Shown: piece after piece, positions 262-35,467 of the stretch
How the letters are laid out: every line of letters begins with the position of its first letter
Numbering within the stretch: position 1 is the stretch's first letter
NCBI GenBank assembly: GCA_964644965.1
Contig: CAZXYN010000005.1
Span: 9,759 to 73,758, forward strand
Origin: an uncultured Candidatus Saccharibacteria bacterium
Lineage (GTDB): Bacteria; Patescibacteriota; Saccharimonadia; Saccharimonadales; JACDBH01
Direction: 5' to 3'
Length of the DNA stretch: 64,000 bases
Notes under the pieces: model-generated
The model's input: the letters and a program-made list of their open reading frames with translations, nothing else
Told to the model about the DNA's origin: nothing
The model's database searches: none
Translations under genes and position numbers: made by a program

Positions 262-271
262 GAGCGGATTT

Positions 272-985
272 CTACAATTGGGTAGGTAGCGTAGGGGGCT
301 CGATCACAGTGTATCTGATAGTATAGTCGTCCGGGTTTATTCCAGCCCCGGATATATAATCAGTCACCCTCTTTCCATATTGTGCAATAATCTCATTTTT
401 ATCCCTGCCTAAATCTTCTCTAGTTACATATAAATCAACATCCAGGAATAAAATAGATTCACCCATGTCATCCGTGCCAAAAGTATACTTTATAAAAAAT
501 CTATCACCTTGGTGTGGCAGGATATTGAGGATTGGGTTGTCAAATCTCCCTCTGTCTGCAACATATGCCTCCAGCTCTTTTTGGGTACCGCTGAGTCTTT
601 CGAACTGTATATAACCAGCTGTGAAACTAACCCTCACTTCGTCGATAATCTCTTGATCCAAGGAAACAACGTTTTTAACAACGAAACTATAAGCCGTATC
701 CTTTTCTAGTCGCCGCAGGGTTAAGAAAAGATAGGGTCCTTCTGCAAAAGTTCTACTTACAATAAAATCACCTTCAATATTCTTAGCATAATCTATGGAC
801 GTATCCAGATCTTCACTAAACTCTAATCGAACTGTACTGGTAGACGTAGCAACCACTTGATTAGTATCAGGTGTTGATCTAACCAGCCTGAACTCATGGT
901 TCTGTCCGAAAAAGAACCAAACAGCTCCTATGACAGCAATCACTATCAATACCAGAATAGTTTTCCTTACATTGTTCGTGCTCAT
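272..985 (-). CDS. hypothetical N-terminally membrane-anchored protein, last gene of T4SS-like operon
   Basis: 237-aa ORF; N-terminal hydrophobic helix ILVLIVIAVIGAVWFFF then soluble domain; 4-nt start/stop overlap with upstream hydrolase gene (982-985). Confidence 0.6.
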   Translation of the reverse strand: MSTNNVRKTILVLIVIAVIGAVWFFFGQNHEFRLVRSTPDTNQVVATSTSTVRLEFSEDLDTSIDYAKNIEGDFIVSRTFAEGPYLFLTLRRLEKDTAYSFVVKNVVSLDQEIIDEVRVSFTAGYIQFERLSGTQKELEAYVADRGRFDNPILNILPHQGDRFFIKYTFGTDDMGESILFLDVDLYVTREDLGRDKNEIIAQYGKRVTDYISGAGINPDDYTIRYTVIEPPTLPTQL

Positions 986-2091
986 GGAATCCTCACAAAT
1001 CCGGTGAGTGCAGGAAGCTCGGCACTATACGAGGCTTTTTTTATGGTGTTGCTCTCGTTTCCGCCGATTGATGTGTATGTGTTGGTATTGCTCTCGTAGC
1101 TCACAACTATGTTTACGTGTGATGGGAAGGGCATCAGACCTTCTTTATAGACGGCTATATCGCCAGGTTGTGGCACAAAACCGGCCTCGCCTTTTGGATG
1201 GAACCAACCTCGTTCATCACCATAGGCCATAATTCCCGACGCTGTTGAGATAGTACCGCCTTCGAAGCCAGCGCCTGCCGTTTCAAAAACCCAGCTGACA
1301 AAAAATGCGCACCACTCTGCTCTCACGCCATTTGTGTACTTTAGGTAGGATTCATTTTCTTCTTTTGCACCCAAAGCTAGCTCCCCCTCAGCTATCTGTA
1401 TAACTTTACTAGCGGTACCACCTGCTATACAACCAGAACTACTCACTGTATTTATCCCTGGAGCCTCGCCCCCAACCTTCTCGATCCAAATACTAAATTC
1501 CGGCGCATTATGGTATGAGAGCGTTATGTCACTGCCCACGCCATTTGATATTGACTCGATTAGTTTCTCCGCATATTGCCGAGGGGTTATAGTATTTCTT
1601 CCCGGTATTATATCAAGCAATGACTCGTTTGTTATGGCAGCCGGTAGGAAATGGCTAACCGCAAGTTTAAATAAATCATTATTCATAGACCTGAATTTTT
1701 GAGTATATTCTATGTAAGCTACGGCATCTTGAACCGCTTCCGGAGCATCTGCAGCTCTTGCATAGTTTCCTGCAGGACCGTATAAACTAGCTCTCGCTCT
1801 CCAAGTTGAGTCAATATACTGGTATTTGCCTGATGCACTACTAGCACCAGATTTGGCAGTTGGGTTACCGCTACTCTCCTGATAGGCTAAGACTTGCAAG
1901 AATCGATCAATACTGCCATTAGCAATACCTATATCATTACATACCGCGCTCGGCTGTGCGTCAAAATAATACACACCTGAGTCAAAAAGCTTTCGCTGGT
2001 CTGGCGACAATCCTATTGCTGGCGCTGTTGGTATAACTAGCATAGCTAACATCACTACCACAGAAGCAACTTTACTTTTCCAATCAATCAT
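982..2091 (-). CDS. secreted peptidoglycan hydrolase, transglycosylase-like N-domain plus C-terminal CHAP amidase/peptidase domain (VirB1/PrgK-like role)
   Basis: 369 aa; signal/anchor VVVMLAMLVIPTAPAIG; AYQESSGNP...GKYQYIDSTW resembles lytic transglycosylase/Rpf-like motif; EWCAFFVSWVF (Cys) and PSHVNIVVS (His) resemble CHAP catalytic pair. Confidence 0.8.
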   Translation of the reverse strand: MIDWKSKVASVVVMLAMLVIPTAPAIGLSPDQRKLFDSGVYYFDAQPSAVCNDIGIANGSIDRFLQVLAYQESSGNPTAKSGASSASGKYQYIDSTWRARASLYGPAGNYARAADAPEAVQDAVAYIEYTQKFRSMNNDLFKLAVSHFLPAAITNESLLDIIPGRNTITPRQYAEKLIESISNGVGSDITLSYHNAPEFSIWIEKVGGEAPGINTVSSSGCIAGGTASKVIQIAEGELALGAKEENESYLKYTNGVRAEWCAFFVSWVFETAGAGFEGGTISTASGIMAYGDERGWFHPKGEAGFVPQPGDIAVYKEGLMPFPSHVNIVVSYESNTNTYTSIGGNESNTIKKASYSAELPALTGFVRIP

Positions 2092-5019
2092 CTAATTACC
2101 TGTTGTTGACCAGTGCCAATTCTCTGAGGGCAGGTTTTTTAAGCCATAGCTAGCGGCGTTAGCAACCAACCAATCCCAACAAACCCTTGTGGACGGTCTT
2201 TCTCTTAAGTTAATAAAGCCAATACCATTACAAATTAAGTCTATAGCTAAACCTCTCTCGTGAAAAGATGTGCCTGGTTTGGCTGTTGGCGGGCTACAGC
2301 TGTTGGCGGACATCTCATATATGGCGTAGTTGCTTGTACCACAGTTTTGTCGCCGTAATGCAATCTGTCTTGCGGGGTCGCGCCAACCTCCACCGGTAAA
2401 AGTAATCCCACTAGCTTTTGCGTCATTTACTAGTCTCTCAATAGTGCCAGCAATACAATTATGAACCAATATACCTTGCACATCAGTTATCTCTTCTCTA
2501 CCAACTGGCGCTGATGGGCATTGACTCGTATCAAGGGATCCGGATGTATTAGTGTTTGCCGGTTGAGTGCCAAGACCAAGTTCAGTACACGCCTGCGCAT
2601 TATCATCATAGCAGTCCATCGTTCTGGCTATAGAGTCGTCCATAACGAAAAGAGCAGTTCGGATCCAATCGGGACTTAGATCGCCACAATTAGCCCCATT
2701 ATACTCGTTAGACAAAGGGTTTATCTCTTTGTCTAAAAGCGTTGTCCGTAACTGGCTTCCTTCACCCACTATTTCTACACCGAAACAATTCTTTACCCTG
2801 TCTTCGTCTATGCTACCTCTGTTATCAATAACCCACTTTACGTTTTCAGGGGAGTCATAGTTTGGATCATCGACAATGCTAGCAGGCATTGATACCAACG
2901 GGAATCCCCAGTCGTAAGTCGCTGATTGAGCATGGGCACTAGGCGATGCAATGGATAAGAGGTTGGATACTGTGCTAATAGGAGACTTTAATAGACCGGG
3001 GACTATTGAGCCGAAACTATTGCCAACACCAACGAGTCCGTGGCTCAGGGCCGGACGCATTGTGGCCATTGCGAGAGACCGTTTTTCCTGGGGGTTGAAT
3101 AATCTGTCGAACAAGTCCTTTTGTCTGAACTCCGCAATTTCTTGCTCGTTGATCTGGTTTAGTAGTGCCGTCTCGTCGCCGCTACTTAAAGGTACCCCAC
3201 CCATCGCAGCAGCATTTATATTGCTAGACATTCTAGCTGCATACGCGAGGCAGTTTCCGTATGCCTCTGCGTTTAATACCTCGATATCTTCTGGTTTGTC
3301 GCTTTCACCCGAATCAAACTCCACACCACATACGTCGGTAACCCTGCCCCTTACCTGTCCCTCTACAACTTCACCGAGAATCCTACTTGCTGCATAAGAG
3401 ATGGTACCGGCCAGGACGGCCTGTGCAGCTACCCTGCCCACGGCTCCGGCTGTTGTGGTTCCACCGGTAACTACGCCCCCTACAACCCCTGCAACAGTAA
3501 GCGTAGCACCGGCCGCAAGGCCGACAACTCTAGCGACTGGATTGCACGCAAAATCAGAGACACCATCAGCAACATCAGCAGCAGTAGCCCCGTCGTATCC
3601 AAGAGCACTCACTAGGCCTGAAATGCTGCTGCCGGTTGTAGTGAAAGCAGATCTGGCACCAATATCTATATCCGTACCAACACCCGATCCTCCGTTCGTC
3701 AATGCGTTGACAGACTTCGCACCCCATACGCTACGTCCATCAGCATCTCTAAAGTCAGCTATCACGTCCCCTGCTAACTGGGCGGTGAGATTCTGTCCCG
3801 ACTGGAATTGTGATGCCGCACTTTGGGTTTGGATTGATCTTATCATGGCGGGTGTGACTATAGTTGCATAGTAGACACCTGGTACTATGCCCGCAATATC
3901 TTTGACCGTGCACATAACTCCCTGAATTGCAACTGCAGCCCCAGCCGTTTTCATTAGTCCTGACCCGGCCTTGCTTCTCAGGTCGCTGCGTGCACTGGAT
4001 CTTCTCTGGTCAACCTCAACACTCTTTCTGGATCTCTCTGCATCAGCCTGCTTCCTTTCGCGCCTTGCTAGCACGGCATTATCTATGCGTCGCCCAACCG
4101 ATTCGCTAGCTCGGGATACAGGGTGAAATAGACTCGGTAATCTCAATGTTTTGCTAAACAATCTTTTGTTCATTGATACGGCAACTTTAGGATTAAGCCT
4201 TACGGTCGCCCTTCCACCACCAGCGTGGTGTGCTAAACCTTTTTTGATATTGTCAAGTTCGCTACCCTTAAAGTCCGACAACCTAAAGCTAAGGGATGTG
4301 TCGGTGTTGCCGATAGTGCCCACGCGGACTTTTTCTGCATCAATTCCAAATGCCCTGGCTATGTTTAGGCGGGTGTGTGTTGGCGTAGGGCCTCTGAGGG
4401 GGGAGTTAGCAGGTGGGTCAAACGTGACCGTTACTCTAGAGTTTCCCGTTACTCGTCCTGTTGTCTCTGTAAGCTTTATACCATGCTGCTGATCTAGTCT
4501 ATCCAGCATTCCGCCAAATACCCTATTTTGAACTGTTCCCAGGCGCGAACGTGACAGCATAACCCTATCATCGGCGTTCTTAAACAGGGATCGGTAAAGC
4601 ATCCTGTTTATACGTCTGTTTATGATATTTGTGTGAGCGCTTTCGTGTTTACCCAAAGCAGCATCAAGTTGGAATACTTGCATTGGACCCGTCGTCAAGA
4701 TTGTGAGTGCTCCAAGGCCTCCGCCGATAACAGTTCCTACGATACTACCAATAACTACCTGTTTTTTAGTTACGCGGGAGCGGCTCTTTTTCTTCTTTTC
4801 ATCATCACGGAACGGGATTTCATCATCAGAATCTCCTGTCTTTTCATCCAGTTTGGCACGTTCGGCCATATCATCGGTGACGGCACGGTCTTCCATAGCC
4901 TGCTCCTCGGCAGGGTTAATACCAGTGATCTGATTTAGATCACCCGTTCTTTTATCAAGCTTATCAGCTTCAATTTCCTCTGGTCGAGTTTTGGTTTGTT
5001 GGTCGTCGTAGACTGCCAT
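2092..5019 (-). CDS. large membrane protein with C-terminal M15/VanY-type D-Ala-D-Ala peptidase domain, T4SS-associated
   Basis: 975 aa; acidic N-terminus, TM VVIGSIVGTVIGGGLGALTILTTG, Gly/Ala/Val-rich hydrophobic segment mid-protein; C-terminus has SFHERGLAID (SxHxxGxAxD) and ENWHWS motifs of VanY/M15 peptidases; directly abuts neighbouring genes. Confidence 0.8.
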   Translation of the reverse strand: MAVYDDQQTKTRPEEIEADKLDKRTGDLNQITGINPAEEQAMEDRAVTDDMAERAKLDEKTGDSDDEIPFRDDEKKKKSRSRVTKKQVVIGSIVGTVIGGGLGALTILTTGPMQVFQLDAALGKHESAHTNIINRRINRMLYRSLFKNADDRVMLSRSRLGTVQNRVFGGMLDRLDQQHGIKLTETTGRVTGNSRVTVTFDPPANSPLRGPTPTHTRLNIARAFGIDAEKVRVGTIGNTDTSLSFRLSDFKGSELDNIKKGLAHHAGGGRATVRLNPKVAVSMNKRLFSKTLRLPSLFHPVSRASESVGRRIDNAVLARRERKQADAERSRKSVEVDQRRSSARSDLRSKAGSGLMKTAGAAVAIQGVMCTVKDIAGIVPGVYYATIVTPAMIRSIQTQSAASQFQSGQNLTAQLAGDVIADFRDADGRSVWGAKSVNALTNGGSGVGTDIDIGARSAFTTTGSSISGLVSALGYDGATAADVADGVSDFACNPVARVVGLAAGATLTVAGVVGGVVTGGTTTAGAVGRVAAQAVLAGTISYAASRILGEVVEGQVRGRVTDVCGVEFDSGESDKPEDIEVLNAEAYGNCLAYAARMSSNINAAAMGGVPLSSGDETALLNQINEQEIAEFRQKDLFDRLFNPQEKRSLAMATMRPALSHGLVGVGNSFGSIVPGLLKSPISTVSNLLSIASPSAHAQSATYDWGFPLVSMPASIVDDPNYDSPENVKWVIDNRGSIDEDRVKNCFGVEIVGEGSQLRTTLLDKEINPLSNEYNGANCGDLSPDWIRTALFVMDDSIARTMDCYDDNAQACTELGLGTQPANTNTSGSLDTSQCPSAPVGREEITDVQGILVHNCIAGTIERLVNDAKASGITFTGGGWRDPARQIALRRQNCGTSNYAIYEMSANSCSPPTAKPGTSFHERGLAIDLICNGIGFINLRERPSTRVCWDWLVANAASYGLKNLPSENWHWSTTGN

Positions 5020-5025
5020 TGTTCC

Positions 5026-6951
5026 CTACATGCCCGGTGCGAGCCGGTTATCTAGGTCTATTGTACCTTGTCCTTGGTCAATTTCGCCACCCTGTTCGAT
5101 TGCCTGCACCTGAGCCGGATCAGTCGTAATTAGACCCTGTTCGGTCTGGCTGGCAATAATTTGAATATGCACGTGATTTTGACCGGCAAAGAACAGCCCT
5201 TGCCCAACTGGGAATTGACTCAAGCGTTTCTTCTCTTCCGAAGTAAGCTTAAAGGTGTCGCTGAGCACATCAACCGCCGAACTCGACTGCTTAAGCAGAA
5301 TCTGCATACTGGCATTAGCGACAATCGCTCGACCCATGCGGGAGCCCATGAAATCTTCAACATCCTGGGTAATGGTGGTGATACCTAGGTTATATTTGCG
5401 GGCACGTTTAGCTAGGCTAAACAAGAAGTTAGCCGAATCTTCGTACTTCATAAGTTGCCAAGCTTCGTCCACCACCAAAATTCGGCGTTTGCGGTCACTC
5501 TTGGTCTTGTTCCAGATGTAATTTAGCACAATATACATAGCTACAGGTCGGAGTTCGTCCTCTAGGTCGCGAATATTGAACACGACCATCGGGTTATCGA
5601 TGTTTATGTTGCTTTGCTGCGAGAAAATACCAGCAAATGTACCGCTAGTGTACTTGCGTAATCTTTGAGCCAGCTGAGGACCGGTGCCGCCCATGTGTAG
5701 TAGTACATCGTACAGATCAGCAACGGTTGGCGCTGGCGATTGGTGGGTCAGCGGATCATCGGTAATTCCTGCACGTTTGTAAGTTTCAATCAGTGCAGCG
5801 TCTAGGTCAGACTCTTCGACAGGACTTAGCGCTGGCGCAATCATGCCGCCACCCTGCGCGGCACCGGCCATCTGTGCCTGCGCACCACCCATCATCAGAC
5901 GCAGCAGACCGTGCAAGGTTATCAAGTTGCTACGCAGCGCATCACCAGCGTCATCGCCATCTATGACTTGTGGCAAATCGAACGGATTGATACGGGTTGG
6001 CGAGTTGAGGCTGAGCTTTACATAAGCTCCGCCGACAGCCTCGGCCATGCGCTGGTATTCGTTTTCTGGATCGATGATAAATATCTCGGTGCCAAACATC
6101 AGGCTGCGCAGAGCCTCAAGCTTAACAGTAAAGCTCTTACCAGCACCAGACTTAGCAAAAACCACAGAGTTGCCGTTCTCTAGACTAAAACGATCAAATA
6201 TCACCAGCCCAGAGTTGTGCATATTGATGCCGTACATAATGCCGTTGTCTTGGCTGAGATCTGCCGATGTAAACGGAAATGTCGTGCTCAGTGCGCCGGT
6301 GTTCATGTTGCGACGAATCTGTAGCTGGTCGGTAAACTGCGGAATGGTGCTGTTGAGCCCCTGCTCTTGCTGGGCGCTGGCGACCTTGCTGTAGACCAGC
6401 TGCTGGCCAAGCATTGACTCTACCTTGTGGGTCACGAACTCCAACTCTTCCTGACTGTTGCCGTAGATGGTGAAATACAGACCAAATCGGAAGAATCTTT
6501 CCTCGCCCACCTGCAATTTGTCGCGCATTTCCTCGGCATCCATAATCGCCGCTTGTTTACCTGGGTCGCGGACACGACCCTTCTCGGAATCAATCTGAAT
6601 ACCGGCTTCCAGCTGAGTCACCTTCTTGCGTAGGTTTTCTAGTACAACCTGGCTCTCTACAGGGTAGATAAACATGCTGAGATCCATGACCTCATCTAGA
6701 TTAACCATACTACCAAGCCAGCCAGTAAACACTTGGCGCGGGTAGCCGTAGACGTAGAGGGTGCGAGCGTAGCGGGTACCAATACGGAAGAATCCACTCT
6801 GGAATTCGATTGAGCTCGGTGCAACAAAATCACGTAGCGCCGTGACGCCCTTTTGGAAAGCAGCGTGAACCTCTTGTTCCTCACGCTGTCTCTGGGCCTG
6901 AGCCAGCGCTACAGGATCGGCTTGCGGTTTTTGTTTTCCAAATGCCATCAT
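5026..6951 (-). CDS. virB4: VirB4/TrsE/PrgJ-class type IV secretion ATPase
   Basis: 641 aa; Walker A FAKSGAGKSFT, Walker B RILVVDEAWQLM; N-terminal FRIGTRYARTLYVYGYPRQVFTGWL typical of Gram-positive VirB4 homologues; GGAGG RBS upstream of ATG. Confidence 0.9.
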   Translation of the reverse strand: MMAFGKQKPQADPVALAQAQRQREEQEVHAAFQKGVTALRDFVAPSSIEFQSGFFRIGTRYARTLYVYGYPRQVFTGWLGSMVNLDEVMDLSMFIYPVESQVVLENLRKKVTQLEAGIQIDSEKGRVRDPGKQAAIMDAEEMRDKLQVGEERFFRFGLYFTIYGNSQEELEFVTHKVESMLGQQLVYSKVASAQQEQGLNSTIPQFTDQLQIRRNMNTGALSTTFPFTSADLSQDNGIMYGINMHNSGLVIFDRFSLENGNSVVFAKSGAGKSFTVKLEALRSLMFGTEIFIIDPENEYQRMAEAVGGAYVKLSLNSPTRINPFDLPQVIDGDDAGDALRSNLITLHGLLRLMMGGAQAQMAGAAQGGGMIAPALSPVEESDLDAALIETYKRAGITDDPLTHQSPAPTVADLYDVLLHMGGTGPQLAQRLRKYTSGTFAGIFSQQSNINIDNPMVVFNIRDLEDELRPVAMYIVLNYIWNKTKSDRKRRILVVDEAWQLMKYEDSANFLFSLAKRARKYNLGITTITQDVEDFMGSRMGRAIVANASMQILLKQSSSAVDVLSDTFKLTSEEKKRLSQFPVGQGLFFAGQNHVHIQIIASQTEQGLITTDPAQVQAIEQGGEIDQGQGTIDLDNRLAPGM

Positions 6952-7060
6952 AGGCCTCCTTCAGAGGCAATTATCAATTCACAATTATCAATTTTCATTA
7001 AATTTTCATTTACCAATTCGCATTCGGCCACGAATCGTCTGACAAATGTAGAACTACCTA

Positions 7061-7978
7061 TCATTGTAGTTCCCTCTCTAGATTTGGCTGCGGCGCAACA
7101 CCTTCGCCCTTGGTTACAACCGGGGCTGTCAGGTCGCCAAAGTTCTTCATCTGCTGGCGAGTAGCGGTATCTGGGTTGTAAGCATCGTAGAATAGCTCAA
7201 TAAGTTCCTGGGTATCTAGCGGTAGCCCTTGTACGCCACACTGCAGCATACCAGACAGCACCGCCTGGACTCGGTTTTTGAGCTCGGTCTTGGCGGCTTC
7301 TAGGTCTGCTTCGTTGATAGTGACGTGTTTTTCGTCACTTTGTTTAAACGACCCCATTAGATTGTTTATGAAACTTTTGCTGGCCTCTACAGCCTTCTGA
7401 GCTTCAAGCCCGACTGGAATAAACGGAATAACAATATAAAACCGCTTATCCATGATATTGGTCTGCTGAGCTATATTACTCATGAAGAAGATGTAATCTT
7501 CCATCAGTAGCGCCAGCAGCATGTTGTCGTGCTCGGAGCGTATCTTGTCGAGCTTCTCGATATAGGGGCGGATGTCCACCTTCTGTGAACGCACAAGGAT
7601 CTGGATTGGGAAATACAAAGAGTTTAGAAATCCCTGGTAGCTGTACTCTACGCCTTCTTGTTCCTGGGGATTCATCAGGTCAAAGTTCACGCTCTTCATC
7701 ATCAGCACAGACCGGAACGAACCGTCATTCATGATTACAATACCGTCGCGAATCTCAGCAATTTGCAAGGTGTTTTGGGTACTGTTTGGGTTGGTTGCTT
7801 GAGCGGACTGTATCTGCGGGCTCTGGGTTTGCGGCGGCATACCTGGTTGCATCTGGGGCGGTGCTTGACCGTACTGCTGGGCTGGAGTGATTGGCGCTGG
7901 CTGTGCGGGTACACTACCAGGCTGTGCGCCGGGATTAGGAGCTGCGTACGGATTCTGATTATCTGGATTCACTAGCAA
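7061..7978 (-). CDS. hypothetical T4SS-operon protein, Pro/Gln-rich N-terminus; C-terminal part resembles by eye the non-ATPase N-domain of conjugative VirB4-like proteins
   Basis: 305 aa; segment IAEIRDGIVIMNDGSFRSVLMMKSVNFDLMNPQEQEGVEYSYQGFLNSLYFPIQILVRSQKVDIRPYIEKL follows the pattern seen at N-termini of Gram-positive VirB4 homologues; no Walker motifs. Confidence 0.55.
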   Translation of the reverse strand: MLVNPDNQNPYAAPNPGAQPGSVPAQPAPITPAQQYGQAPPQMQPGMPPQTQSPQIQSAQATNPNSTQNTLQIAEIRDGIVIMNDGSFRSVLMMKSVNFDLMNPQEQEGVEYSYQGFLNSLYFPIQILVRSQKVDIRPYIEKLDKIRSEHDNMLLALLMEDYIFFMSNIAQQTNIMDKRFYIVIPFIPVGLEAQKAVEASKSFINNLMGSFKQSDEKHVTINEADLEAAKTELKNRVQAVLSGMLQCGVQGLPLDTQELIELFYDAYNPDTATRQQMKNFGDLTAPVVTKGEGVAPQPNLERELQ

Positions 7979-8112
7979 AGCCCCCAGCCTAGAGGTGAGT
8001 CATGCAGTATAGTTCTGTAAGAAATTGATTTCATAGGTAATCCCACTCTTCGAGTACAAACCAAAATGTCATTTCCAATTATAGGCGATTTCACCTTTAT
8101 AGTACAGGGTAA

Positions 8113-8548
8113 GAAACGTTAGCAATTTTCATTTTTCAATTCTCAATTTACAATCAACTGACAATGACCAATTATCAAAAGAAGTTTGACCTGGAGGAAA
8201 GAACTGCAAAGTTTGGCGAAGATGTGATAAATTTGTGCAAAAATCTGCCTAAAAACGAAATAACACGCCCACTAATCAATCAGATAATTCGTTCGGCAAC
8301 CAGTATCGGCGCAAACTACATGGAAGCCAACGGGGCTAGTAGCAAGAAGGACTTCAGGAATAAAGTATATATTTGTAAAAAAGAAGCTCAAGAAACCAGG
8401 CACTGGCTCAGGATGCTCGCCACCGCTCTACCGGAAGATAAAGAGGCTTTTCGTATTCTCTGGCAGGAGGCTCACGAGTTAGTCCTGATATTTCAGAAAA
8501 TCACCTCAACTCTAAATGAAAATTGAAAACTGAAACGTTTGAAAATTG
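8113..8548 (+). mobile_element. four-helix-bundle (IVS-protein) cassette with imperfect inverted repeats, inserted antisense in the T4SS operon
   Basis: Upstream CAATTTTCA (8123-8131) and TTTTCAATT (8133-8141) are complementary to downstream TGAAAATTG (8540-8548) and AATTGAAAA (8521-8529); GAAACGTT occurs at 8113-8120 and 8532-8539. Confidence 0.4.
8164..8526 (+). CDS. four-helix-bundle protein (23S rRNA intervening-sequence protein family)
   Basis: 120 aa; SATSIGANYMEANGASSKKDFRNKVYICKKEAQETRHWLRML matches the hallmark IxANIAEG...F...A.gS..E family pattern; only plus-strand gene within the minus-strand operon. Confidence 0.85.
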   Translation: MTNYQKKFDLEERTAKFGEDVINLCKNLPKNEITRPLINQIIRSATSIGANYMEANGASSKKDFRNKVYICKKEAQETRHWLRMLATALPEDKEAFRILWQEAHELVLIFQKITSTLNEN

Positions 8549-8552
8549 TCTT

Positions 8553-9665
8553 CTAGTGTAATGATACGACGACTTCGCCATCATCGTTCGGCTTGTTCAT
8601 TTTTTGAGCCTGCCGTGCGATAGTGGCAACGTCCAAATCATCATTGCTTGCAAGTCCAATTATAGCAGGGTTAACAGGGTTTTGTCTGTCTGTTTGCTGA
8701 TTGTTGCCTTGGGTTACTGCTGGTGCGGCCTGGGGCAAAGGTTTGCCCTGTTCGTCATGAAGCGGCTGCAGCACGCGTACGTGGTCTGACACGTGGGCTT
8801 TTTCTTTCTCGTGCTCTTCTACCAATTTGTGAGCAAAGGCCTTTTCTTCCTCGGTTACCTCTACAGACTGAGTGGAGTCATCGGTGCCAGGCGCTACGAC
8901 TTGCTGGTTAGCAAACGTCGCGTAGTTTTGCGGCAGAGGCATCTGTGGGGTCTGCGGCTGATTCATGAACCAATAGTCTTGTGCTGTTTGTGGCTTCTGG
9001 CCACCGCCCGACACTTGATCTCTAATCTGCTGCTTGTGGCTGCTAGAGGATTGTTTGATTAGCTGGTCGAGGTGCTGCGCGGTTGAGTTGGTGCTAGGAT
9101 CGAGCATGTCGTCAGATGGCAGCACATCTACACTGGACACATCCTGGGGTAAGCTGCTCGGGTCTACCAACCTATCAGAGTTTGCTGCCAAATACCCAGG
9201 CTGAGCAAACATATTGGCGTTGACGTTCTTCACCGCCCAGCCACGGCTGTCGACGGTGTTGGCTAGAGCTTGCAGACGGCTTTTTACTTCGTCTTGGTTA
9301 AAGTTCTTGGTAAAAACTTCTTGCACTCGCTTTGGTGCGGTTATGGTGACTAGGTCGCTGACACCGTCTTGGTTCCAGATTCGGGTACGAGATTTGAACA
9401 AAAACCGCAGCCGCGCCAGCAGCCAGATGTCATTTGGCTGATCACGCCCAATTGGCGCCGCTAGGAACCCTAGCACCAGCATAGGAACTAGCATCGGAGC
9501 TACAAAAACCACCTTCACAGGCAGCGGTATGCCAGTGACTATAACTCGAAAACAAATAAAACCCATCACAATCGCAACCGCCGCAAAGATAAACTGCTTG
9601 AGCGTAAACGGCCCAAATAGCTTGTCCTCTGCCTCTATATCTTGTAATACTTTATATGTCGCCAT
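8553..9665 (-). CDS. PrgI/VirB3-like T4SS membrane protein with long Gln/Pro-rich C-terminal extension
   Basis: 370 aa; N-terminus YKVLQDIEAEDKLFGPFTLKQFIFAAVAIVMGFICF followed by second TM (PrgI-family pattern). Confidence 0.7.
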   Translation of the reverse strand: MATYKVLQDIEAEDKLFGPFTLKQFIFAAVAIVMGFICFRVIVTGIPLPVKVVFVAPMLVPMLVLGFLAAPIGRDQPNDIWLLARLRFLFKSRTRIWNQDGVSDLVTITAPKRVQEVFTKNFNQDEVKSRLQALANTVDSRGWAVKNVNANMFAQPGYLAANSDRLVDPSSLPQDVSSVDVLPSDDMLDPSTNSTAQHLDQLIKQSSSSHKQQIRDQVSGGGQKPQTAQDYWFMNQPQTPQMPLPQNYATFANQQVVAPGTDDSTQSVEVTEEEKAFAHKLVEEHEKEKAHVSDHVRVLQPLHDEQGKPLPQAAPAVTQGNNQQTDRQNPVNPAIIGLASNDDLDVATIARQAQKMNKPNDDGEVVVSLH

Positions 9666-9739
9666 CTTTGTCTAAATTATAGATTATTTATCTGCTTACA
9701 AAAAGTGAGGTTTGCATGTTGTCTTTCAAGAATGCAGAA

Positions 9740-12700
9740 CTACTCAGGAAGATTAGGATCATTCGGATTGCGAGCTCGTGGGTTTAATCTTTCCCATCTT
9801 TGGGCTATTTGAGGGTCTCTTTCTATGCGGCCTCTAACGCTTGTTGGGTCAGAGGGGCCTGCAGCTCCAGGTCTCAGCCCTCCTGTCCTAATAAGGTCAG
9901 TGCTGTTCATGAGTTCATTAATCACCTCTTGGTTGTCGTCACTAGCATAAGACTTGGACTGGTTTAGTTGTTCTATTTGGGCTGCAGTTCTTAACATCTC
10001 ATCAGTAGCGTTATCTCTGTCTGTCTGAGACAACGTTTGGTCTTGTGATCTCCTGTGTTGTTCAGTAAGATGTGACCCAAGGGAACTTGCAAGGTTTCTA
10101 ACTTCCGGAGTTTTGCCTCTTAGTAAAGTGACTGGATCTTGAGCTCTTGAGGCTTGTACAGTTGCTCTATCATACGCAAGGGATGTGGGTCTTTGAGTAG
10201 GGCTCAACTCTTCGTGCACAAGACTCTGCAGGTTGCCAAATCCTGGAGCCAAATCACCACGCCCAACCTTCTTTGTCTCCGCATTTGCAAAACCAGCAAG
10301 TGCGCTTGCGGTAGATAGATTACCTCCAGATGCCCTAGCAAGTGTGCGTGACATATGCCCGACATCCCTGTAGCCAGTACCTGTAGATACCAGCTGTTGG
10401 GCAGCTGCAATAGCCGCTGCGCGTCCACCTAGTCCAGTTGCCTGCCAGGCTGCAATCGATCTGTCGGCTTCTGTCGCATTTACCCCATCAGCAATAAGTG
10501 CAGCACGGGCTTCCTTAGCGTTCATATCTTGCAATAGGATTCCTGCATGCAAAGCATTATCGTCTTGATTAACACCATTCCAGGCAGGATTCTTCATGAT
10601 TTGCTCCATGCTATTTAGCCGAGCCATCTGATCCATGCGAGCTTTGCCCTTTTTGCCCATTCCAAACACACCCTTACCACCACCTACTCCAGCACCCAGT
10701 CTTGTACCTGCGCCACGTGTAATCATATTCCTCTGACCAAATCCCGTACCGGTGCCAGTCTTGAATTCATTCCAGCGCTTGGCGCGAGATTCTTGACGAC
10801 CCTTCTTGAGCCTATCTAGCACACCACGCTCACTGTCATTGACCATACCAGCGATATTGCCAAACACACCACCAACCCACTTGAACATAAACGGTATAAA
10901 GAAGAACGGCATAATAAACGCACCAATAACAAGAACAACCTTCACTACGGAGTTGGTGGCCGCGAGTCCGGCGACGTTTGCAAACACTTCCCCAACCCCT
11001 AGCAAAAGCATAATCACCGGAAACAGCAGCAGCAGCCTAGAGAACGTCTTCCACCAAGTCTTCCACATGGCATCATTACCTGGGAAAATCCAGGCCAGGA
11101 TTGCGAGCGGAGCCACTAGGAACAGGGCAAGCAAAATAATTTGGCGAGCAATAAGGAGCAAGAAAATGCCGCCTAGCACGAGCGCAGCCGAAAAGAGCGT
11201 GCTCATAATCACGCCAACGCTAGCAATACTTACAAAGAGTCCTGCCGCAGCGATTACTCCCAGTCCAGCGACACGTGCCTGATCTCCAACACTTGCCCCA
11301 TCACCTGCCTGCAGCACCTGTGCATTCACCAAGGCTGCTCTAAGTGGTGCACCCTGGGTGCCAACATCAAACGGTCCTGTTATTAGTCCGCGTATACCCA
11401 CTCCAATAACATTCGTAATCTCTACAAGGAACAGGCAGATATACCAAGACAAAGTAATAAATATCACCGCTATCACCATGCGCGGCAATGCCTTCTTGAT
11501 TGTGTAAGCACTGAATATTTCAAACCCAAGCGCAGTCCCAATTACCATGACAAGCATTATCGGCACAAGGATTGCGTAGGCAATATTTCGTATCTGAGTC
11601 CAAGAAGCTTTCAATTTTTGCCCTGCACTCGGGTCGCCATTTTCTTCGGGCGCTTGGTCAAAATAACTACTTTTTATAAACAACAGGTCTCTGATTTGCT
11701 CATCGAGGAACGCAACTATATTGTCCAAAAGCTCTGCTACTGGACACAAAATCCAACTCAAACCACCGCCGTTGGATGAACATTCATCAATTTCTTCGTC
11801 TCCACCACCCGTTATATTCTCTCCGGCCTGGGTTGTTGAGACTCCGTCGGTATTTTCAGAACCTGCTACCGTTACAGCGAGCACATTACTAGAGCCCTCT
11901 TTTCTTATTTGTAAATCTCTAGTACCAGATCCTATTGACGCAACTTCTGTCGGGGTAGAAGTTATGTATAGATTTCCATTACAGTTTTCGGTTCTGAATT
12001 GATTGCGCCCTGCACACCAAGAGAACGTACGAGTGCCCTGCTCTCCTTGAGACACGTGCTGGATGAGTGTTTCTTCACCAGCGCCAACCACCCCGTAAGT
12101 TATATTGAACTTATCAAGCCCACCGATAATGGCACCCACCTTATAGCCAGTGGCACCACTCGGTATACTATGCCCACAGCGCCATTCAAGAGGGTTACCA
12201 TAAAGCAGGAAGTTGCCGTTTGTTAAGCCATCACACTCAGCACTTGTTCTATCTTCCTCAAATCCTATTATGTAGTCTATATCGCTAATAAGCCCCTGTA
12301 GGTCGGAGCGAGTAATTTTTTTATCCTTTCCATTAAAAGTATCGTTTAGTTCGTCATCCAGTCTACCGCTGAATCCTTTAACCCGACTTTCATCGGAGGT
12401 ATCATCCCCACTTACAAATCGGTAATCAAAGTTACCGTCACCTGTATTCGAATCTATAAGGTAGCCATCAAGAAGGTTCTTGAACTCATCATTTGCAAAT
12501 ACATACCTTGCATTTGCTCCAGAGGGTGAATCGCAATTGCCCGACCCACTATAACTTACTTGTATTGCGGCGCGGTTAACAAAACTAATATTCAGCCAGC
12601 CCGACGGACGTCGAGTATCGTGATTATAGGGGGGCACACAGAGCTGGTTGGGTTCGGTTGCGTGTACAGCTTCGGACGAAGGATTCACGACCGCTAGTGC

Positions 12701-12778
12701 TGCAGCAGCGAGAAATGAAACAGCAATAACAAGTAATGTGCGCCATAAGCTAGCTAACTGCTTATGTTTTGGACTCAT
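9740..12778 (-). CDS. VirB6/TrbL/PrgH-like polytopic T4SS membrane protein with large N-terminal extracytoplasmic and C-terminal cytoplasmic domains
   Basis: 1012 aa; signal/anchor LLVIAVSFLAAAALAVV, Cys-containing about 330-aa domain, then multiple hydrophobic helices around aa 390-640, then about 370-aa hydrophilic tail. Confidence 0.7.
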   Translation of the reverse strand: MSPKHKQLASLWRTLLVIAVSFLAAAALAVVNPSSEAVHATEPNQLCVPPYNHDTRRPSGWLNISFVNRAAIQVSYSGSGNCDSPSGANARYVFANDEFKNLLDGYLIDSNTGDGNFDYRFVSGDDTSDESRVKGFSGRLDDELNDTFNGKDKKITRSDLQGLISDIDYIIGFEEDRTSAECDGLTNGNFLLYGNPLEWRCGHSIPSGATGYKVGAIIGGLDKFNITYGVVGAGEETLIQHVSQGEQGTRTFSWCAGRNQFRTENCNGNLYITSTPTEVASIGSGTRDLQIRKEGSSNVLAVTVAGSENTDGVSTTQAGENITGGGDEEIDECSSNGGGLSWILCPVAELLDNIVAFLDEQIRDLLFIKSSYFDQAPEENGDPSAGQKLKASWTQIRNIAYAILVPIMLVMVIGTALGFEIFSAYTIKKALPRMVIAVIFITLSWYICLFLVEITNVIGVGIRGLITGPFDVGTQGAPLRAALVNAQVLQAGDGASVGDQARVAGLGVIAAAGLFVSIASVGVIMSTLFSAALVLGGIFLLLIARQIILLALFLVAPLAILAWIFPGNDAMWKTWWKTFSRLLLLFPVIMLLLGVGEVFANVAGLAATNSVVKVVLVIGAFIMPFFFIPFMFKWVGGVFGNIAGMVNDSERGVLDRLKKGRQESRAKRWNEFKTGTGTGFGQRNMITRGAGTRLGAGVGGGKGVFGMGKKGKARMDQMARLNSMEQIMKNPAWNGVNQDDNALHAGILLQDMNAKEARAALIADGVNATEADRSIAAWQATGLGGRAAAIAAAQQLVSTGTGYRDVGHMSRTLARASGGNLSTASALAGFANAETKKVGRGDLAPGFGNLQSLVHEELSPTQRPTSLAYDRATVQASRAQDPVTLLRGKTPEVRNLASSLGSHLTEQHRRSQDQTLSQTDRDNATDEMLRTAAQIEQLNQSKSYASDDNQEVINELMNSTDLIRTGGLRPGAAGPSDPTSVRGRIERDPQIAQRWERLNPRARNPNDPNLPE

Positions 12779-12839
12779 GTATCAAAATATAGCAGTAAAC
12801 GCAATAAAATAACAGGGTTAATATTTACATTAACAGAGG

Positions 12840-13946
12840 TTAATTCGTAATACTTGGTTCGTTGCTCACGATTCGCCAGCTCATTTCCTGAATACTGCCA
12901 GAATCTTTGTTCAGAATGAGACGGGTGAACTCAAGATAAGCTTGACCAGCATTGGATGGCTTGCCAAGCGTCGTGTCTTTAGCTTGGCTGAGAATATCTG
13001 CATTATTGATATCATCACCGCTATAAAACGAGAATACGCCCATGTAACCAGTACAGCTAACCGTATTGCCGTTATCAACACATTCCTCCACTCTTACATA
13101 ATCTTCTGTTGCATAGAATCGTTCAAGCGATCGCATGCGCTCTTCGGCGCCTTCATAATCAAAGTCTTCGCTAGATTCGCCCCCCATTACACGAGCGAGA
13201 GCATCAGTGTCTCGTAAATTGAGTGCAGCTAGAATGTCTTCGCCTACTTCTGTGAGTAAGCTTTCCGGAGCGCTACTCTCGAAGTAGTAATTTCCCTCAG
13301 AAACGGTGTCGGAATAGCCATGATTCGTAAGCTCAGACAACAGCAACGATTCGCTATCGTTCAAAAATGGGTAGCTTCCTTTTCGCGGCTCAACCTCTGA
13401 GCTGTCTTCAGGATTTTCCTCGGCTACTGGTTCGTCAACTTCTACTGGGTTGCTCGGGTCTTCTACAACTTCATCAGTAGTGTTTTCTGCCGGGACAGGA
13501 GCTGCTTCGGGAGTGTTATCTCCACTACCAGCCAGGCCTTTTGCGACAAAAGCTGCGCCACCAGCCAGTACGACTGCCGCAGTGAACGCGCCAATCTTCT
13601 TGCCTAGTGACATTTTCTTCTTGTCTTCTGGATTGCGAGGATCTTCTTCAATTTTTAGAGGGGTAATAAGACCCTTTTCGTGGGCTACACCAAGATGAGT
13701 GTCAAATTCTTTAACAGGTTTTTCAAGTCCAAGATTGCCCGAGTGAGGGATGCTATCTGTCTTCGTATACTCAGCTTCGACGACACCACCATCAGCAGGG
13801 CCGTACAGAGATGCTTGGTCTTGCTCAGCAGTATTGGCTTCATTAGCATCCGGGAATAGCTGCTGTTGGTTGATTTCGTCGTGGTTTATGTCTGTCATAG
13901 AATTTGTCCTTATAATTTCTAACGAACTGCCTGTATTATACCACAT
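12840..13946 (-). CDS. hypothetical single-pass membrane protein, first gene of T4SS-like operon
   Basis: 368 aa; TM IGAFTAAVVLAGGAAFVAKGLAG, acidic Pro/Glu-rich linker, C-terminal globular part; alternative start MTDINH at 13898. Confidence 0.6.
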   Translation of the reverse strand: MWYNTGSSLEIIRTNSMTDINHDEINQQQLFPDANEANTAEQDQASLYGPADGGVVEAEYTKTDSIPHSGNLGLEKPVKEFDTHLGVAHEKGLITPLKIEEDPRNPEDKKKMSLGKKIGAFTAAVVLAGGAAFVAKGLAGSGDNTPEAAPVPAENTTDEVVEDPSNPVEVDEPVAEENPEDSSEVEPRKGSYPFLNDSESLLLSELTNHGYSDTVSEGNYYFESSAPESLLTEVGEDILAALNLRDTDALARVMGGESSEDFDYEGAEERMRSLERFYATEDYVRVEECVDNGNTVSCTGYMGVFSFYSGDDINNADILSQAKDTTLGKPSNAGQAYLEFTRLILNKDSGSIQEMSWRIVSNEPSITN

Positions 13947-14043
13947 GAAAACGCTTGTGTCTAGTACCCAGAACCATTTTGCGACTGTTCACCCCTGTGA
14001 AAATTTCTAAAAAAGTCCAAAAACCCACAAAGACTATACAAAC

Positions 14044-14072
14044 TTGTCTTTTGCCACCGAAGAGTTTATAGT
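14044..14072 (+). promoter_or_regulatory. candidate sigma70-type promoter of pilin array
   Basis: TTGTCT (14044-14049), 17-nt spacer, TATAGT (14067-14072); only 8 nt before ATG 14081, implying a near-leaderless transcript. Confidence 0.35.
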
Positions 14073-14080
14073 TAGACCAA

Positions 14081-14608: not shown

Positions 14609-14610
14609 CT

Positions 14611-15126: not shown

Positions 15127-15160
15127 GGATGTATAAAAGTAAGGTGTAAAATAAGATAGT

Positions 15161-15840: not shown

Positions 15841-15845
15841 GAGAT

Positions 15846-16253: not shown

Positions 16254-16339
16254 GGCTACGAGTGGTTACGCTTGTAACAGGGCGTATCTAGTGATATAAC
16301 TAATGCTAAAGCAATAAAGTAAATGAGGAATAACAAAAG

Positions 16340-16762: not shown

Positions 16763-16847
16763 GGTAGAGCAATAAATTTGTGTTAAGCCCCGGTTCCTCA
16801 CTGGGGTTTTTCTTTGCCCTTAGCTCCCGCCCCTTCTAGGGACAATC

Positions 16848-16880: not shown

Positions 16881-16931
16881 GTCGAGGTTTCTAAGGTTTA
16901 GAGAACTTCGATTTTCTTGACCGTGTCCTGT

Positions 16932-18949: not shown

Positions 18950-18956
18950 GATTCTT

Positions 18957-33744: not shown

Positions 33745-35055
33745 ATGAATATTAGGAAGACGGTGAAGAAGTTTATACCTAAGGGGTTATTCCCGTTGAT
33801 TGAGCCGTATGGCCACAAGGCTGAGGCGGTGCTGTTTCACGGTCTGAACGGTTTTCCGGCTCGGCGAATGAAAGTTATCGGTGTGACCGGGACAAACGGC
33901 AAGACGACGACCAGCTTCATGATTCACCGCATGCTAACAGAGGCAGGCTATAAAGTGGGGCTGATGAGCACGGTGGCTTACGGTATTGGTGACGAAATAC
34001 ATCCACAGGTGCACCACATGACTAATGTGGCAGTGCCGGAGCTAGTACGCCGACTAAAATGGATGCGTGACCAAGGGGTAGAATGGCTAGTGCTGGAGAC
34101 GACAAGCCACGCGCTGGCGCAGAACCGCGTGTGGGGCGTGCCGTATTCTATCGCCGTCATGACCAATGTGACGCATGAGCACCTGGATATGCATGGTACG
34201 TTTGAGCGTTATCGTGATGCCAAGCGGCGGCTGTTCCAGATAACAAACCGCAACAAAAAGGGCATGCAGGTGGGAATTATCAATGCTGAGGACCCAAGCG
34301 CTACGCTGTTTAAACGCGATATCAAAAACGCCATAACCTATGGTATCGACAAGGGTGAAATGCAAGCGCGCGACGTCAAATTGACACCAGATGGCTCTAA
34401 ATACACGGTGTTTTATAAGGGCAAAGAACTGAAGATTGAGTGTTTTATACCGGGCAAGTTTAATGTATCTAACAGCTTGGCGGCGGCGGCTGTCGGTGGC
34501 GTGGTGGGGCTGAGCGGCGAGCAGATAGAGCAGGGGATTGCGGCGCTAAAGCGGGTCGAAGGGCGGATGGATCCGATTGATGAGGGGCAGAGCTACAGTG
34601 TAATTGTGGATTTTGCTCATACGCCGGATAGTTTCGAGAAGTTATTCAAAGATCTGCGGCCAGTGGTGAAGGGCAAGCTGATTGTGATGTTTGGCAGTGC
34701 TGGGAGGCGCGACGAGGCCAAGCGGGCTATCCAGGGTGAGTTAGCTGGGAAGTATGCCGATGAGGTCGTGGTGACCGAAGAGGATGATCGTGATATCGAT
34801 GGCCAGGAAATTATGAATATGATTGCCGAGGGGGCTGAAAAGGCTGGCAAAGTGCGCGATAAGAATTTGTTTTTGGTACATGATCGTACACAGGCTATAG
34901 AATTTGCGGTTTCACGTGCATCGGCTAAAGACGACACGGTGTTGCTACTAGGAAAAGGTCACGAGAAGACCATAGAGCGAGCTGATGGTGAGCATGATTG
35001 GGACGAAATTTCCGTTGTGCGCAAGGCACTACGGAAATTGGAATCTGGAAGTTAG
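33745..35055 (+). CDS. murE: Mur ligase family protein (MurE-like, short N-terminus)
   Basis: GVTGTNGKTTT P-loop, HEHLDMHGTFERYRDAKRRLF, DFAHTPDS, C-terminal VVTEEDDRD; TTG 33727 alternative start. Confidence 0.75.
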   Translation: MNIRKTVKKFIPKGLFPLIEPYGHKAEAVLFHGLNGFPARRMKVIGVTGTNGKTTTSFMIHRMLTEAGYKVGLMSTVAYGIGDEIHPQVHHMTNVAVPELVRRLKWMRDQGVEWLVLETTSHALAQNRVWGVPYSIAVMTNVTHEHLDMHGTFERYRDAKRRLFQITNRNKKGMQVGIINAEDPSATLFKRDIKNAITYGIDKGEMQARDVKLTPDGSKYTVFYKGKELKIECFIPGKFNVSNSLAAAAVGGVVGLSGEQIEQGIAALKRVEGRMDPIDEGQSYSVIVDFAHTPDSFEKLFKDLRPVVKGKLIVMFGSAGRRDEAKRAIQGELAGKYADEVVVTEEDDRDIDGQEIMNMIAEGAEKAGKVRDKNLFLVHDRTQAIEFAVSRASAKDDTVLLLGKGHEKTIERADGEHDWDEISVVRKALRKLESGS

Positions 35056-35464
35056 AATCTGGAATCTGGAATGGAAGACATAAAATCATTCAAAAACCTA
35101 AGGGTCTGGCAGGCAAGTTATGAACTTGGTCTTGCCGTCTATCGCCATACAAAGCATTTTCCCAAGGAAGAACAGTTCGCGTTAATATCACAGATGAGGC
35201 GAGCAGTTGTATCTGTGTCTTCCAATATCGCTGAAGGTTATGGCCGCCGGCAGCCCAAAGACAAAGAGCATTTCTATACGATGGCTTGTGGCTCCCTGTA
35301 TGAATTGCAAAGCCAGCTGGAGTTTTCAAAAGGGCTTGGTTATCTAACAGATGTGCAGCACTCAGAATTATCTGAGCAAGCTGTTTCTTGTGCCAAGCAG
35401 CTCAACGCATTATTGAGCAGGCATCGGAGCTGAAATATTCTAAATTCTAACTTCCAGATTCCAA
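35038..35464 (+). mobile_element. four-helix-bundle (IVS-protein) cassette bounded by perfect 21-bp terminal inverted repeats
   Basis: TTGGAATCTGGAAGTTAGAAT (35038-35058) and its exact reverse complement ATTCTAACTTCCAGATTCCAA (35444-35464); left repeat contains the murE-like stop codon (35053-35055). Confidence 0.7.
35071..35433 (+). CDS. four-helix-bundle protein (23S rRNA intervening-sequence protein family)
   Basis: 120 aa; VSSNIAEGYGRRQPKDKEHFYTMACGSLYELQSQL family pattern. Confidence 0.85.
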   Translation: MEDIKSFKNLRVWQASYELGLAVYRHTKHFPKEEQFALISQMRRAVVSVSSNIAEGYGRRQPKDKEHFYTMACGSLYELQSQLEFSKGLGYLTDVQHSELSEQAVSCAKQLNALLSRHRS

Positions 35465-35467
35465 CTT

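Follow-up and report, generated by a model that had tools for sequence, protein, structure and literature searches.

Intervening sequences (IVSs) in ribosomal RNA (rRNA) genes were first described around 1990, and that of Coxiella is 428-444 nt long, lies in helix 45 of 23S rRNA and ends in terminal inverted repeats that form a 28-bp stem cut by RNase III (PMC4990558). Two or three tandem copies of GACAGAT, their number varying among strains, stand right before the ATG of its S23p gene, which has a poor Shine-Dalgarno sequence (PMC4990558). Published reports also place PF05635 open reading frames (ORFs) in insertions within 16S and 23S rRNA of candidate phyla radiation (CPR) bacteria (PMC11270868) and, as 23S_rRNA_IVP genes, inside cas operons, for example between cmr3 and cmr2, a co-occurrence taken to hint at a functional link between the family and CRISPR-Cas (Zhang and Ye 2013, PMC3936711). 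Here we describe an IVS-type cassette, an S23p/Avd-like four-helix-bundle gene between inverted heptamer arms, that was inserted long ago into a type IV secretion system (T4SS) gene cluster of an uncultured Candidatus Saccharibacteria bacterium. It lies on a 64,000-nt stretch of contig CAZXYN010000005.1, called the window throughout (47.6% G+C).

The plus-strand ORF of the cassette (8164-8526) encodes 120 aa and sits in a 574-bp gap (7979-8552) between a TraC-like and a PrgI-like gene. Its product matches PF05635 (23S_rRNA_IVP; E 9e-20, 71.3 bits with a cutoff of 33.8) and TIGR02436 (86.7 bits with a cutoff of 24), so that the four-helix-bundle "23S IVS protein" named in a preliminary description of the window, made from the sequence alone, was correctly identified. 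The published family motif is GxxRxxxSxxxNxxE (PMC3936711); the protein carries R43-x3-S47-x3-N51-x2-E54 within QIIRSATSIGANYMEA, with Q in place of the motif's leading G, and both its length and the R-x3-S-x3-N-x2-E motif are those of PF05635/TIGR02436 proteins (~110-130 aa). At least 7,999 significant relatives were found, the closest named ones being from Candidatus Saccharimonadales. The relative in the PDB is 2RLD (E 7e-14), deposited with five chains, as is 2GSC/XCC0516, the match of a second copy of the family in the window (E 1e-18), and by homology the 120-aa protein is predicted to form a homopentameric four-helix bundle.

The first 14 kb of the window forms a cluster on the minus strand of the sort typically seen in type IV secretion of Gram-positive and CPR bacteria, with genes for CHAP/SLT and VanY wall hydrolases, a VirB4-like ATPase, and TraC-like, PrgI and TrbL_3 proteins. 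Throughout this cluster (272..13946) the ORF is the sole long plus-strand ORF with a family match. Its antisense placement in the 574-bp gap is as previously described, and the four-helix-bundle gene is no component of the secretion machinery.

Complementary A/T-rich words had been noticed on either side of the gene, and these are present, with CAATTTTCA (8123-8131) and TTTTCAATT (8133-8141) to its left and TGAAAATTG (8517-8525 and 8540-8548) and AATTGAAAA (8521-8529) to its right. They are pieces of two ~35-nt inverted arms of tandem heptamers (CAATTTT type) that bracket the inserted unit and exceed both shuffles and controls. TGAAAATTG or its complement occurs four times in the window, with 0.82 expected; three of the four copies flank the gene and the fourth, at 6989, lies in the next intergenic spacer. 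The best single arm pair joins 8127-8148 with 8514-8535 (22 nt, 86% complementary). Local complementarity of the flanks scores 32, compared with 17.3 ± 3.1 in dinucleotide shuffles, 2 of 500 of which reach 32 or more. Among 649 control windows of the same geometry across the 64 kb, the mean was 12 and the maximum 24 once a single window was set aside; that one scored 49 and led to the second cassette described below. Identity within the left arm is 0.63 at a lag of 7 nt versus 0.19-0.39 at other lags. Five CAATTNN-type units at 8123-8157 are tandem heptamers of the kind that characterizes an rRNA IVS, and no Shine-Dalgarno sequence precedes the ORF. Chance complementarity of the flanks was excluded by the shuffles, by the control windows and by conservation of the arms within the protein subfamily.

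To place the cassette in its lineage, TraC-like proteins of the window and two relatives were aligned and used to retrieve the T4SS loci of 80 Saccharimonadales species, about 75 of which show both neighbouring genes. None of the 80 species has a close homologue of the gene in the slot between PrgI and TraC, most slots being empty, and a divergent gene of the same family occupies it in only two loci (L038 and L059). Where the slot is empty, PrgI and TraC are usually 15-150 nt apart, with nothing in between but a GGGTGG-type ribosome-binding site. In locus L013, whose site is empty, the PrgI stop codon leads directly into a module, CTCTGTACT...TATAAT...GGGTGGGA, that is homologous to the sequence after the cassette in the window, where its counterpart starts at 8108 on the minus strand. 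This promoter-like module is shared by the occupied locus L004 and the empty loci L013 and L014. Because the L013 PrgI stop abuts the module that elsewhere follows the cassette, the inserted block is placed at ~8109-8552. The insertion thus appears to have landed just upstream of a pre-existing promoter-like region, and the presence of that module beside the cassette makes a transcription-unit boundary likely, rather than a site deep inside one transcript.

The preliminary description had viewed the cassette as an insertion that the operon tolerates and had proposed a comparison with related loci. That comparison found mostly empty slots, and not a gene with identical flanks conserved at this position across distant relatives, and the view of a tolerated insertion is upheld by the prevalence of empty sites. 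It had also reported an 8-bp word, GAAACGTT, on both sides of the gene. Copies do stand at 8113 and 8532, but the word occurs three times in the window with 1.83 expected (26 of 100 shuffles reach three), and the right-hand copy is not kept in the orthologous L004 cassette. We therefore rejected it as a target-site duplication, and none was found at the junction defined against L013.

Locus L004 carries the cassette in the same slot and orientation, with a protein 83% identical to that of the window. Between the two genes pN is 0.12 and pS is 0.76, with synonymous sites saturated. Shared at saturated synonymous divergence, the insertion is ancient rather than recent; the excess of pS over pN indicates strong purifying selection on the protein. 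In a neighbour-joining tree built from TraC-like proteins, the window and L004 group as a single occupied clade, nested within species whose sites are empty. The subfamily of the window is also found in this slot, again antisense, in loci L007-L010, which belong to a distant clade on the tree, and L038 (antisense) and L059 (sense) have a quite different subfamily in that slot. Judged from these comparisons, the PrgI-TraC slot has been occupied independently at least four times.

Two further observations concern this slot and its leader. In L067 (4483-5001), the sister of L038 on the TraC tree, the slot holds ~350 nt and no ORF, and its TraC-proximal end, TTCTCAGCTCTGTACTC, matches the L038 cassette arm; read by eye, this is probably a decayed cassette with an arm remnant. 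The upstream ORF in the TraC-like leader of the window has 20 codons, and its TAG stop overlaps the GTG start (TAGTG); the L013 analogue has 23 codons and contains a copy of the L013 heptamer-arm sequence.

The armed design extends across the gene family. In a survey of 79 distinct cassettes and 251 control windows from the same loci, arm complementarity was at least 24 in 81% of the cassettes and in none of the controls, and low-scoring cassettes were mostly mis-called starts, tandem cassettes or truncated flanks. The median paired stretch measured 35.5 nt and spanned positions of about -40 to -4 relative to the ATG on the left and +9 to +48 relative to the stop codon on the right. Lag-7 identity in the arms was 0.53, compared with 0.32 at other lags and 0.26 in controls. 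Loci of four-helix-bundle genes contained 163 lag-7 arrays in 274 kb, 110 of them within 100 nt of such an ORF, and T4SS loci contained 15 in 769 kb; arrays at lags 5, 6, 8, 9 and 10 numbered 0-11 per locus set.

Relatives at 61-83% protein identity occur in many other settings, among them a type IV pilus operon (L005), the end of a T4SS pilin array (L006), a position adjoining a signal peptidase gene (L100) and further pilus-type contexts (L110, L118). One ATP synthase operon (L135) holds two PF05635 cassettes of different subfamilies (2980-3342 and 4894-5205), all on one strand, in the order atpG, four-helix-bundle gene, atpD, four-helix-bundle gene, atpC. Nearly all relatives have tandem AATTTTC/AATTTAC units up to the ATG and complementary GAAAATT/GTAAATT units after the ORF. 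In four loci (L100, L136, L142 and L166) a second array of left-arm type follows the four-helix-bundle stop, ends in ATG (for example ...AATTTTCAATCAATTTTCAATG) and lacks an inverted right arm; these may represent tandem cassettes, truncated ones, or arrays that belong to the following gene.

Within the CAATTTT subfamily (68 cassettes), mean protein identity is 67%, and 4-fold degenerate sites are saturated, with an identity of 0.30. Aligned from the ATG, the left arm reaches an identity of 0.54, compared with 0.28-0.41 in shifted registers, and its consensus reads (AATTTTC)x3 AATTTAC AATCAAT TTTCA ATG. With the arms at 0.54 identity and neutral sites at 0.30, the arm sequence itself must be constrained, beyond its ability to pair. 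Between protein subfamilies the arm sequence differs, and complementarity and the 7-nt period are kept; the divergent cassettes of T4SS loci have units of GAGTCCT (L038), TTAAGAC (L059) and CCAGAAA (L031).

The second cassette of the window belongs to a different subfamily. Its ORF matches PF05635 with an E value of 3e-35, its arms mirror each other unit by unit with a complementarity of 49 that none of 500 shuffles reached, and its fold (z -5.2) has a closing stem of ~35 bp. Its left arm also contains the stop codon of a Mur ligase gene that lies upstream. The 64 kb hold one copy of each of these four-helix-bundle subfamilies, and paralogues on other contigs are diverged.

Armed cassettes were likewise found in other phyla, with arms of GGGAAAA type in Nostoc, AAGGTTC type in Riemerella and GGACAGA type in Azospirillum. 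Two stand in cas operons, namely a GGTGACA-type cassette with ~260 nt of array between cas6 and cas4 of Anabaena sp. 90 and a GGAGATA-type cassette between cmr2 and cmr3 of Picosynechococcus. In Gemmatirosa just one side of the gene has a heptamer array, and a copy in Nostoc PCC 7120, adjoining an insertion sequence (IS) element, has unmatched flanks. The Azospirillum lipoferum copy (L173) lies in sense orientation inside a bacterial large subunit (LSU) rRNA gene (Rfam RF02541, 2529 bits) and is a textbook IVS with the same armed design. In viral contigs, the CAATTTT subfamily of the window had no matches, and the second subfamily had six distant, heptamer-armed matches that probably derive from cyanobacterial DNA. 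The surveyed gene is thus almost never alone, complementary heptamer arms accompanying it across about six sampled phyla, and the layout holds in rRNA, cas, ATP synthase and secretion-system operons alike.

The likeness of the window cassette to the S23p rRNA IVSs of Coxiella, Leptospira and Azospirillum covers the protein family, the size of ~444 nt, the stem-closing terminal inverted repeats, the tandem heptamers right before the ATG and the weak or absent Shine-Dalgarno sequence. It differs in lying in the spacer between protein genes (Rfam finds five tRNAs and no rRNA in the window) and in being antisense to its host genes, whereas rRNA copies are sense. The Coxiella ORF is decaying, whereas that of the window is under purifying selection. 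As size, parts and order match those of the Coxiella IVS, the cassette is an IVS-type element outside rRNA. Coordinates are collected in Table 1.

Table 1. Positions in the window of the cassette, its parts and the features discussed with it
Feature	Coordinates	Strand	Basis or detail
Whole inserted cassette (left arm, ORF, right arm)	8109..8552, ~444 nt	+	Placed by empty-site comparison with L013/L014
Left arm	8121..8163	+	CAATTTT CATTTTT CAATTCT CAATTTA CAATCAA; stops 6 nt before ATG
Four-helix-bundle gene	8164..8526	+	PF05635/TIGR02436
Right arm AAATGAAAATTGAAAACTGAAACGTTTGAAAATTG	8512..8549	+	Complementary to left arm; begins within the ORF's last three codons
Promoter-like/leader module of TraC-like gene	7979..8108	-	CTGTACT..TATAAT..GAGTGGGAT..ATG and short upstream ORF; outside the insertion
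PrgI-family T4SS gene (flanking host)	8553..9665	-	PF12666, E 3e-9
TraC-like T4SS gene (flanking host)	7061..7978	-	PF26593 annotation on identical contigs; TraC protein alignment
Partial ORF-less arm relative (spacer between TraC-like and VirB4 genes)	6952..7060	-	CAATT-type heptamer array 6966-7020; fold z -2.9
VirB4-like ATPase gene	5026-6951	-	
Second cassette, different subfamily	35034..35470	+	GGAATCT-type arms 35034-35070 and 35436-35470; ORF 35071-35433

Heptamer arrays without an ORF were found one junction further along the operon. The junction between the TraC-like and VirB4 genes was compared in 79 species, 57 of which have a spacer of 0-1 nt. Fourteen carry an insert of 81-118 nt, mostly hairpins of complementary heptamer arrays, whose units are specific to the species (GAAGGAC in L013, TTGGAAG in L015, CAAACTT in L063, AATTAGG in L080). 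One locus (L031) has a full 462-nt four-helix-bundle cassette at this junction, and in the remaining seven species the spacer is 286 nt long (L046) or between 4 and 52 nt. The heptamer hairpins have better folds than their shuffles (z -2.3 to -4.1). Public gene calls place ORFs of 35-38 aa over them, but the peptides are not conserved and the ORFs are probably spurious annotations. The window belongs to this pattern. Its spacer has units of CAATT type, like the nearby cassette, with an unconserved 38-aa ORF in public records, and a mini-hairpin in it, CCUCUGAAGGAGG, covers the VirB4 ribosome-binding site, which this hairpin would be predicted to sequester. Intervening sequences in rRNA split into short ORF-less and long ORF-bearing forms, and the hairpin and cassette of the window mirror this pair.

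L046 is different in kind. It has inserts at both T4SS junctions (4519-4929, 410 nt; 5844-6130, 286 nt) with no ORF and with strong inverted repeats that are not heptameric (for example CACGAGTTTCGGACTT...AAGTCCGAAACTCGTG), and represents another sort of intergenic element.

Taken as a whole, our account is that an old IVS-type insertion carries a stem excisable by RNase III and a selected protein that binds the arms, and we give it a probability of roughly 0.6. In transcripts across the cassette, on either strand, the arms would pair into a ~35-bp stem with the ORF in the loop; in both the minimum free energy and the centroid structure of each strand they are the closing stem. Like that of the 23S rRNA IVSs of Coxiella, Leptospira and Salmonella, this stem may be a substrate of RNase III, and cleavage would cut the cassette from the host RNA, so that insertion into busy operons could be tolerated.

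Most family members would be transcribed sense, as part of the host operon. Metagenomic cassettes show a strong bias in orientation: 63 of 66 share their strand with the gene upstream and 61 of 72 with the gene downstream, and none of the 44 cassettes with both neighbours scored is antisense to both. The window copy, exceptional in its orientation, would need a promoter of its own because it is antisense to both neighbours, and it may use the left-arm sequence TTTTCA-17-TACAAT. In this promoter-scan hit 9 nt separate the end of the -10 box from the ATG, and the subfamily consensus has TACAAT at -15 to -10. With the promoter in the left arm and no Shine-Dalgarno sequence, the mRNA would be nearly leaderless. 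No terminators were predicted in 7900-8700. The protein is predicted to bind nucleic acid, probably its own arms, such recognition being suggested because the arm sequence is conserved within subfamilies and differs between them. Avd, a homologue of the four-helix-bundle protein from diversity-generating retroelements (DGRs), binds both nucleic acid and reverse transcriptase.

Several observations weigh against this account. In fold energy the cassette does not surpass shuffles (z +1.2 sense, -0.8 antisense), and it is consequently the position of the stem, not its energy, that speaks for the structure. Arm mismatches show no strand bias (51 G.U versus 68 A.C, p 0.14), and an RNA stem and a DNA-level inverted repeat are for this reason not separable. 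Clean heptamer runs are only 3-4 units long. No near-identical copies in different places were found, and so there is no sign of recent movement. RNase III excision has been shown for rRNA copies and is carried over to this cassette by analogy. The authors of the Coxiella study considered S23p to be probably not expressed (PMC4990558), a poor fit with a protein that is needed; despite this status of the Coxiella protein, the window gene is clearly under selection. A match of five heptamers to five subunits was also considered and was rejected as too loose, given clean runs of 3-4 units and stems of ~35 nt.

The alternative that survives best, possible though on balance unlikely, is a DNA-level element of the miniature inverted-repeat transposable element or transposon kind, with the heptamer arms as terminal inverted repeats for a recombinase acting in trans or for the four-helix-bundle protein itself. 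The 81-118 nt ORF-less hairpins would then be non-autonomous derivatives and any RNA structure a by-product. Such terminal repeats could be provided by the arms, whose mismatches lack an RNA-strand bias, and slots are occupied patchily, at least four times independently and in both orientations. Hairpins and a full cassette alternate at the TraC-VirB4 junction, a solo CAATT-type array lies 1.1 kb from a CAATTTT-armed cassette in both the window and L004, and proteins 70-80% identical occur across different candidate phyla. Yet we found no target-site duplication, no recombinase and no transposase nearby, the protein has no known catalytic fold, and no near-identical copies were seen, paralogues on the same contig being only ~78% identical (by eye). 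Co-orientation with the host in 63 of 66 cases is also unexpected from random transposition unless selection filters the outcomes.

A familiar model for such a DNA element is the repetitive extragenic palindrome (REP) and its paired form (REPIN) with the REP-associated tyrosine transposase (RAYT), a small gene flanked by inverted short structured repeats, with gene-less hairpins in operon spacers. RAYTs are Y1 transposases, and REPINs are dispersed in hundreds of near-identical copies per genome. Our cassettes resemble these REPtrons in combining a small gene between inverted repeat flanks with gene-less hairpin derivatives in spacers. They differ in that the four-helix-bundle protein, unlike RAYT, has no known catalytic fold, and in that the arms are tandem heptamers rather than a single palindrome and stay beside their own cassette. 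REPIN-like dispersal was rejected, unit arrays being confined to the cassette in the window and in 50 kb of the 56-kb Anabaena plasmid, where cassette-unit arrays occur only beside the cassette, a further point against a mobile DNA element. The DNA-level reading and the account of an excisable IVS-type insertion are compatible rather than mutually exclusive.

It is improbable that the gene is a domesticated T4SS accessory or regulator, whose antisense transcription or protein would tune expression of its two neighbours, PrgI and TraC-like. In its favour, slot and antisense orientation are shared by three lineages (the window with L004, L007-L010, and L038), the gene is old and under purifying selection, and a layout antisense to both neighbours, otherwise seen in 0 of 44 metagenomic cassettes, makes a special role here possible. 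Against this, the slot lacks the gene in nearly all 80 related T4SS loci, the same subfamily occurs in type IV pilus, signal peptidase and ATP synthase operons, and the L059 cassette in the same slot is sense. Moreover, in this clade the slot marks a boundary ahead of a promoter-like module, which L013 and L014 possess without the cassette. None of the observations calls for antisense regulation of the operon.

Very unlikely is an orphan Avd of a DGR. PF05635 is the Pfam family that Avd resembles, and of all families it is the one that most often accompanies DGR reverse transcriptases (PMC10053308). The likeness to Avd (bAvd, PDB 4DWL) lies in a homologous four-helix-bundle fold of ~120 aa, Avd forming a pentamer, and the second window copy weakly matches bAvd and the Avd model of NCBIfam. 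That model, NF033474, scores the second copy at 26 bits with a cutoff of 80, however, and does not match the 120-aa protein. Unlike a DGR Avd, the window cassette has neither a reverse transcriptase nor a template repeat/variable repeat (TR/VR) pair. No reverse transcriptase (RVT) was detected among the 29 larger window ORFs scanned by Pfam, which include all of at least 250 aa, and no TR/VR pair was found in 1-20000, where the only direct repeat of at least 35 nt joins two paralogous pilin genes. With no reverse transcriptase, TR/VR pair or Avd-model match in these scans, a DGR is excluded so far as 64 kb can tell. A genuine avd, next to a reverse transcriptase gene on the Anabaena plasmid, is without inverted heptamer arms. 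Between the stop of that avd and the reverse transcriptase ATG (L184, Anabaena sp. 90 pANA02, 10106-10131) stands (ACCAATT)x3, with no inverted partner upstream of avd.

That this is an ordinary small gene whose flanking complementary words arose by chance in A/T-rich intergenic DNA is a negligible prospect: the region folds no better than shuffles and GAAACGTT is at chance level, but complementarity of the arms surpasses that of shuffles and of all other control windows, 68 relatives with saturated synonymous divergence share the arm consensus, and 81% of cassettes exceed a score that no control reached.

Cyanobacterial short tandemly repeated repetitive (STRR) sequences are intergenic heptanucleotide repeat arrays, and the Anabaena cassette arms (GGTGACA/TCACCTG) resemble arrays of TAACTGA/STRR type. 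TAACTGA arrays of Beggiatoaceae, cyanobacteria and Bacteroidetes are direct repeats upstream of many genes, often end a few bases from a start codon and have been proposed to act in translation (PMC4679880). They have not been described as paired inverted arms around one gene family. Among the long simple repeats of bacterial genomes, those with heptanucleotide units are the most common (PMC4679880), and the armed cassettes offer a partial explanation of this prevalence. In the searchable literature, the coverage of which is incomplete, only the Coxiella IVS paper links a heptamer array to the PF05635 family.

Already known, then, are the gene family and its occurrence outside rRNA, the rRNA IVS with its stem, the Coxiella heptamers and heptamer arrays before start codons. 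Within the same incompletely covered literature we found no prior account of heptamer-armed hairpins as general to the gene family wherever it is located, of arm sequence tracking the protein subfamily, of ORF-less hairpins and cassettes alternating at the same operon junctions, or of cassettes co-oriented with their hosts. For annotation, co-occurrence of the gene with CRISPR-Cas or T4SS genes should not be taken as a functional link, and the armed layout together with the empty sites suggests that the cas-operon copies are hitch-hiking insertions.

A bolder reading, which we consider speculative and rather doubtful, is that S23p/TIGR02436 proteins are sequence-specific partners of heptamer arrays, subfamily by subfamily, and that cassettes, rRNA IVSs and some ORF-less arrays and hairpins form one universal system. 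If so, each protein would control the processing, translation or spread of RNA or DNA that bears its unit, and the CAATT-type array before the VirB4-like gene, 1.1 kb from the cassette, would be one candidate target.

Other features of the window were recorded in passing. Opposite the T4SS cluster, a plus-strand array of small genes (14081-16762) corresponds to genes annotated as T4SS pilins on orthologous contigs, and two of them have a stretch of 77 nt in common (77% identity; 16161-16237 and 16661-16737). The groES-groEL spacer (38187-38316) was considered as a heptamer hairpin and rejected, its fold being no better than that of shuffles (z -0.64). Four copies of GTAGACG at 31491-31528, inside a TsaD-family gene (30835-32019, minus strand), have no complementary arm nearby and may be an in-gene slippage array. 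A small ORF at ~61221-61513 resembles, by eye, a GIY-YIG (UPF0213-type) nuclease domain protein, and the units AAGTTCG AAGTTCT AAGGACA AAGGACA stand at 61601-61631, inside a 124-aa ORF (61510-61884).

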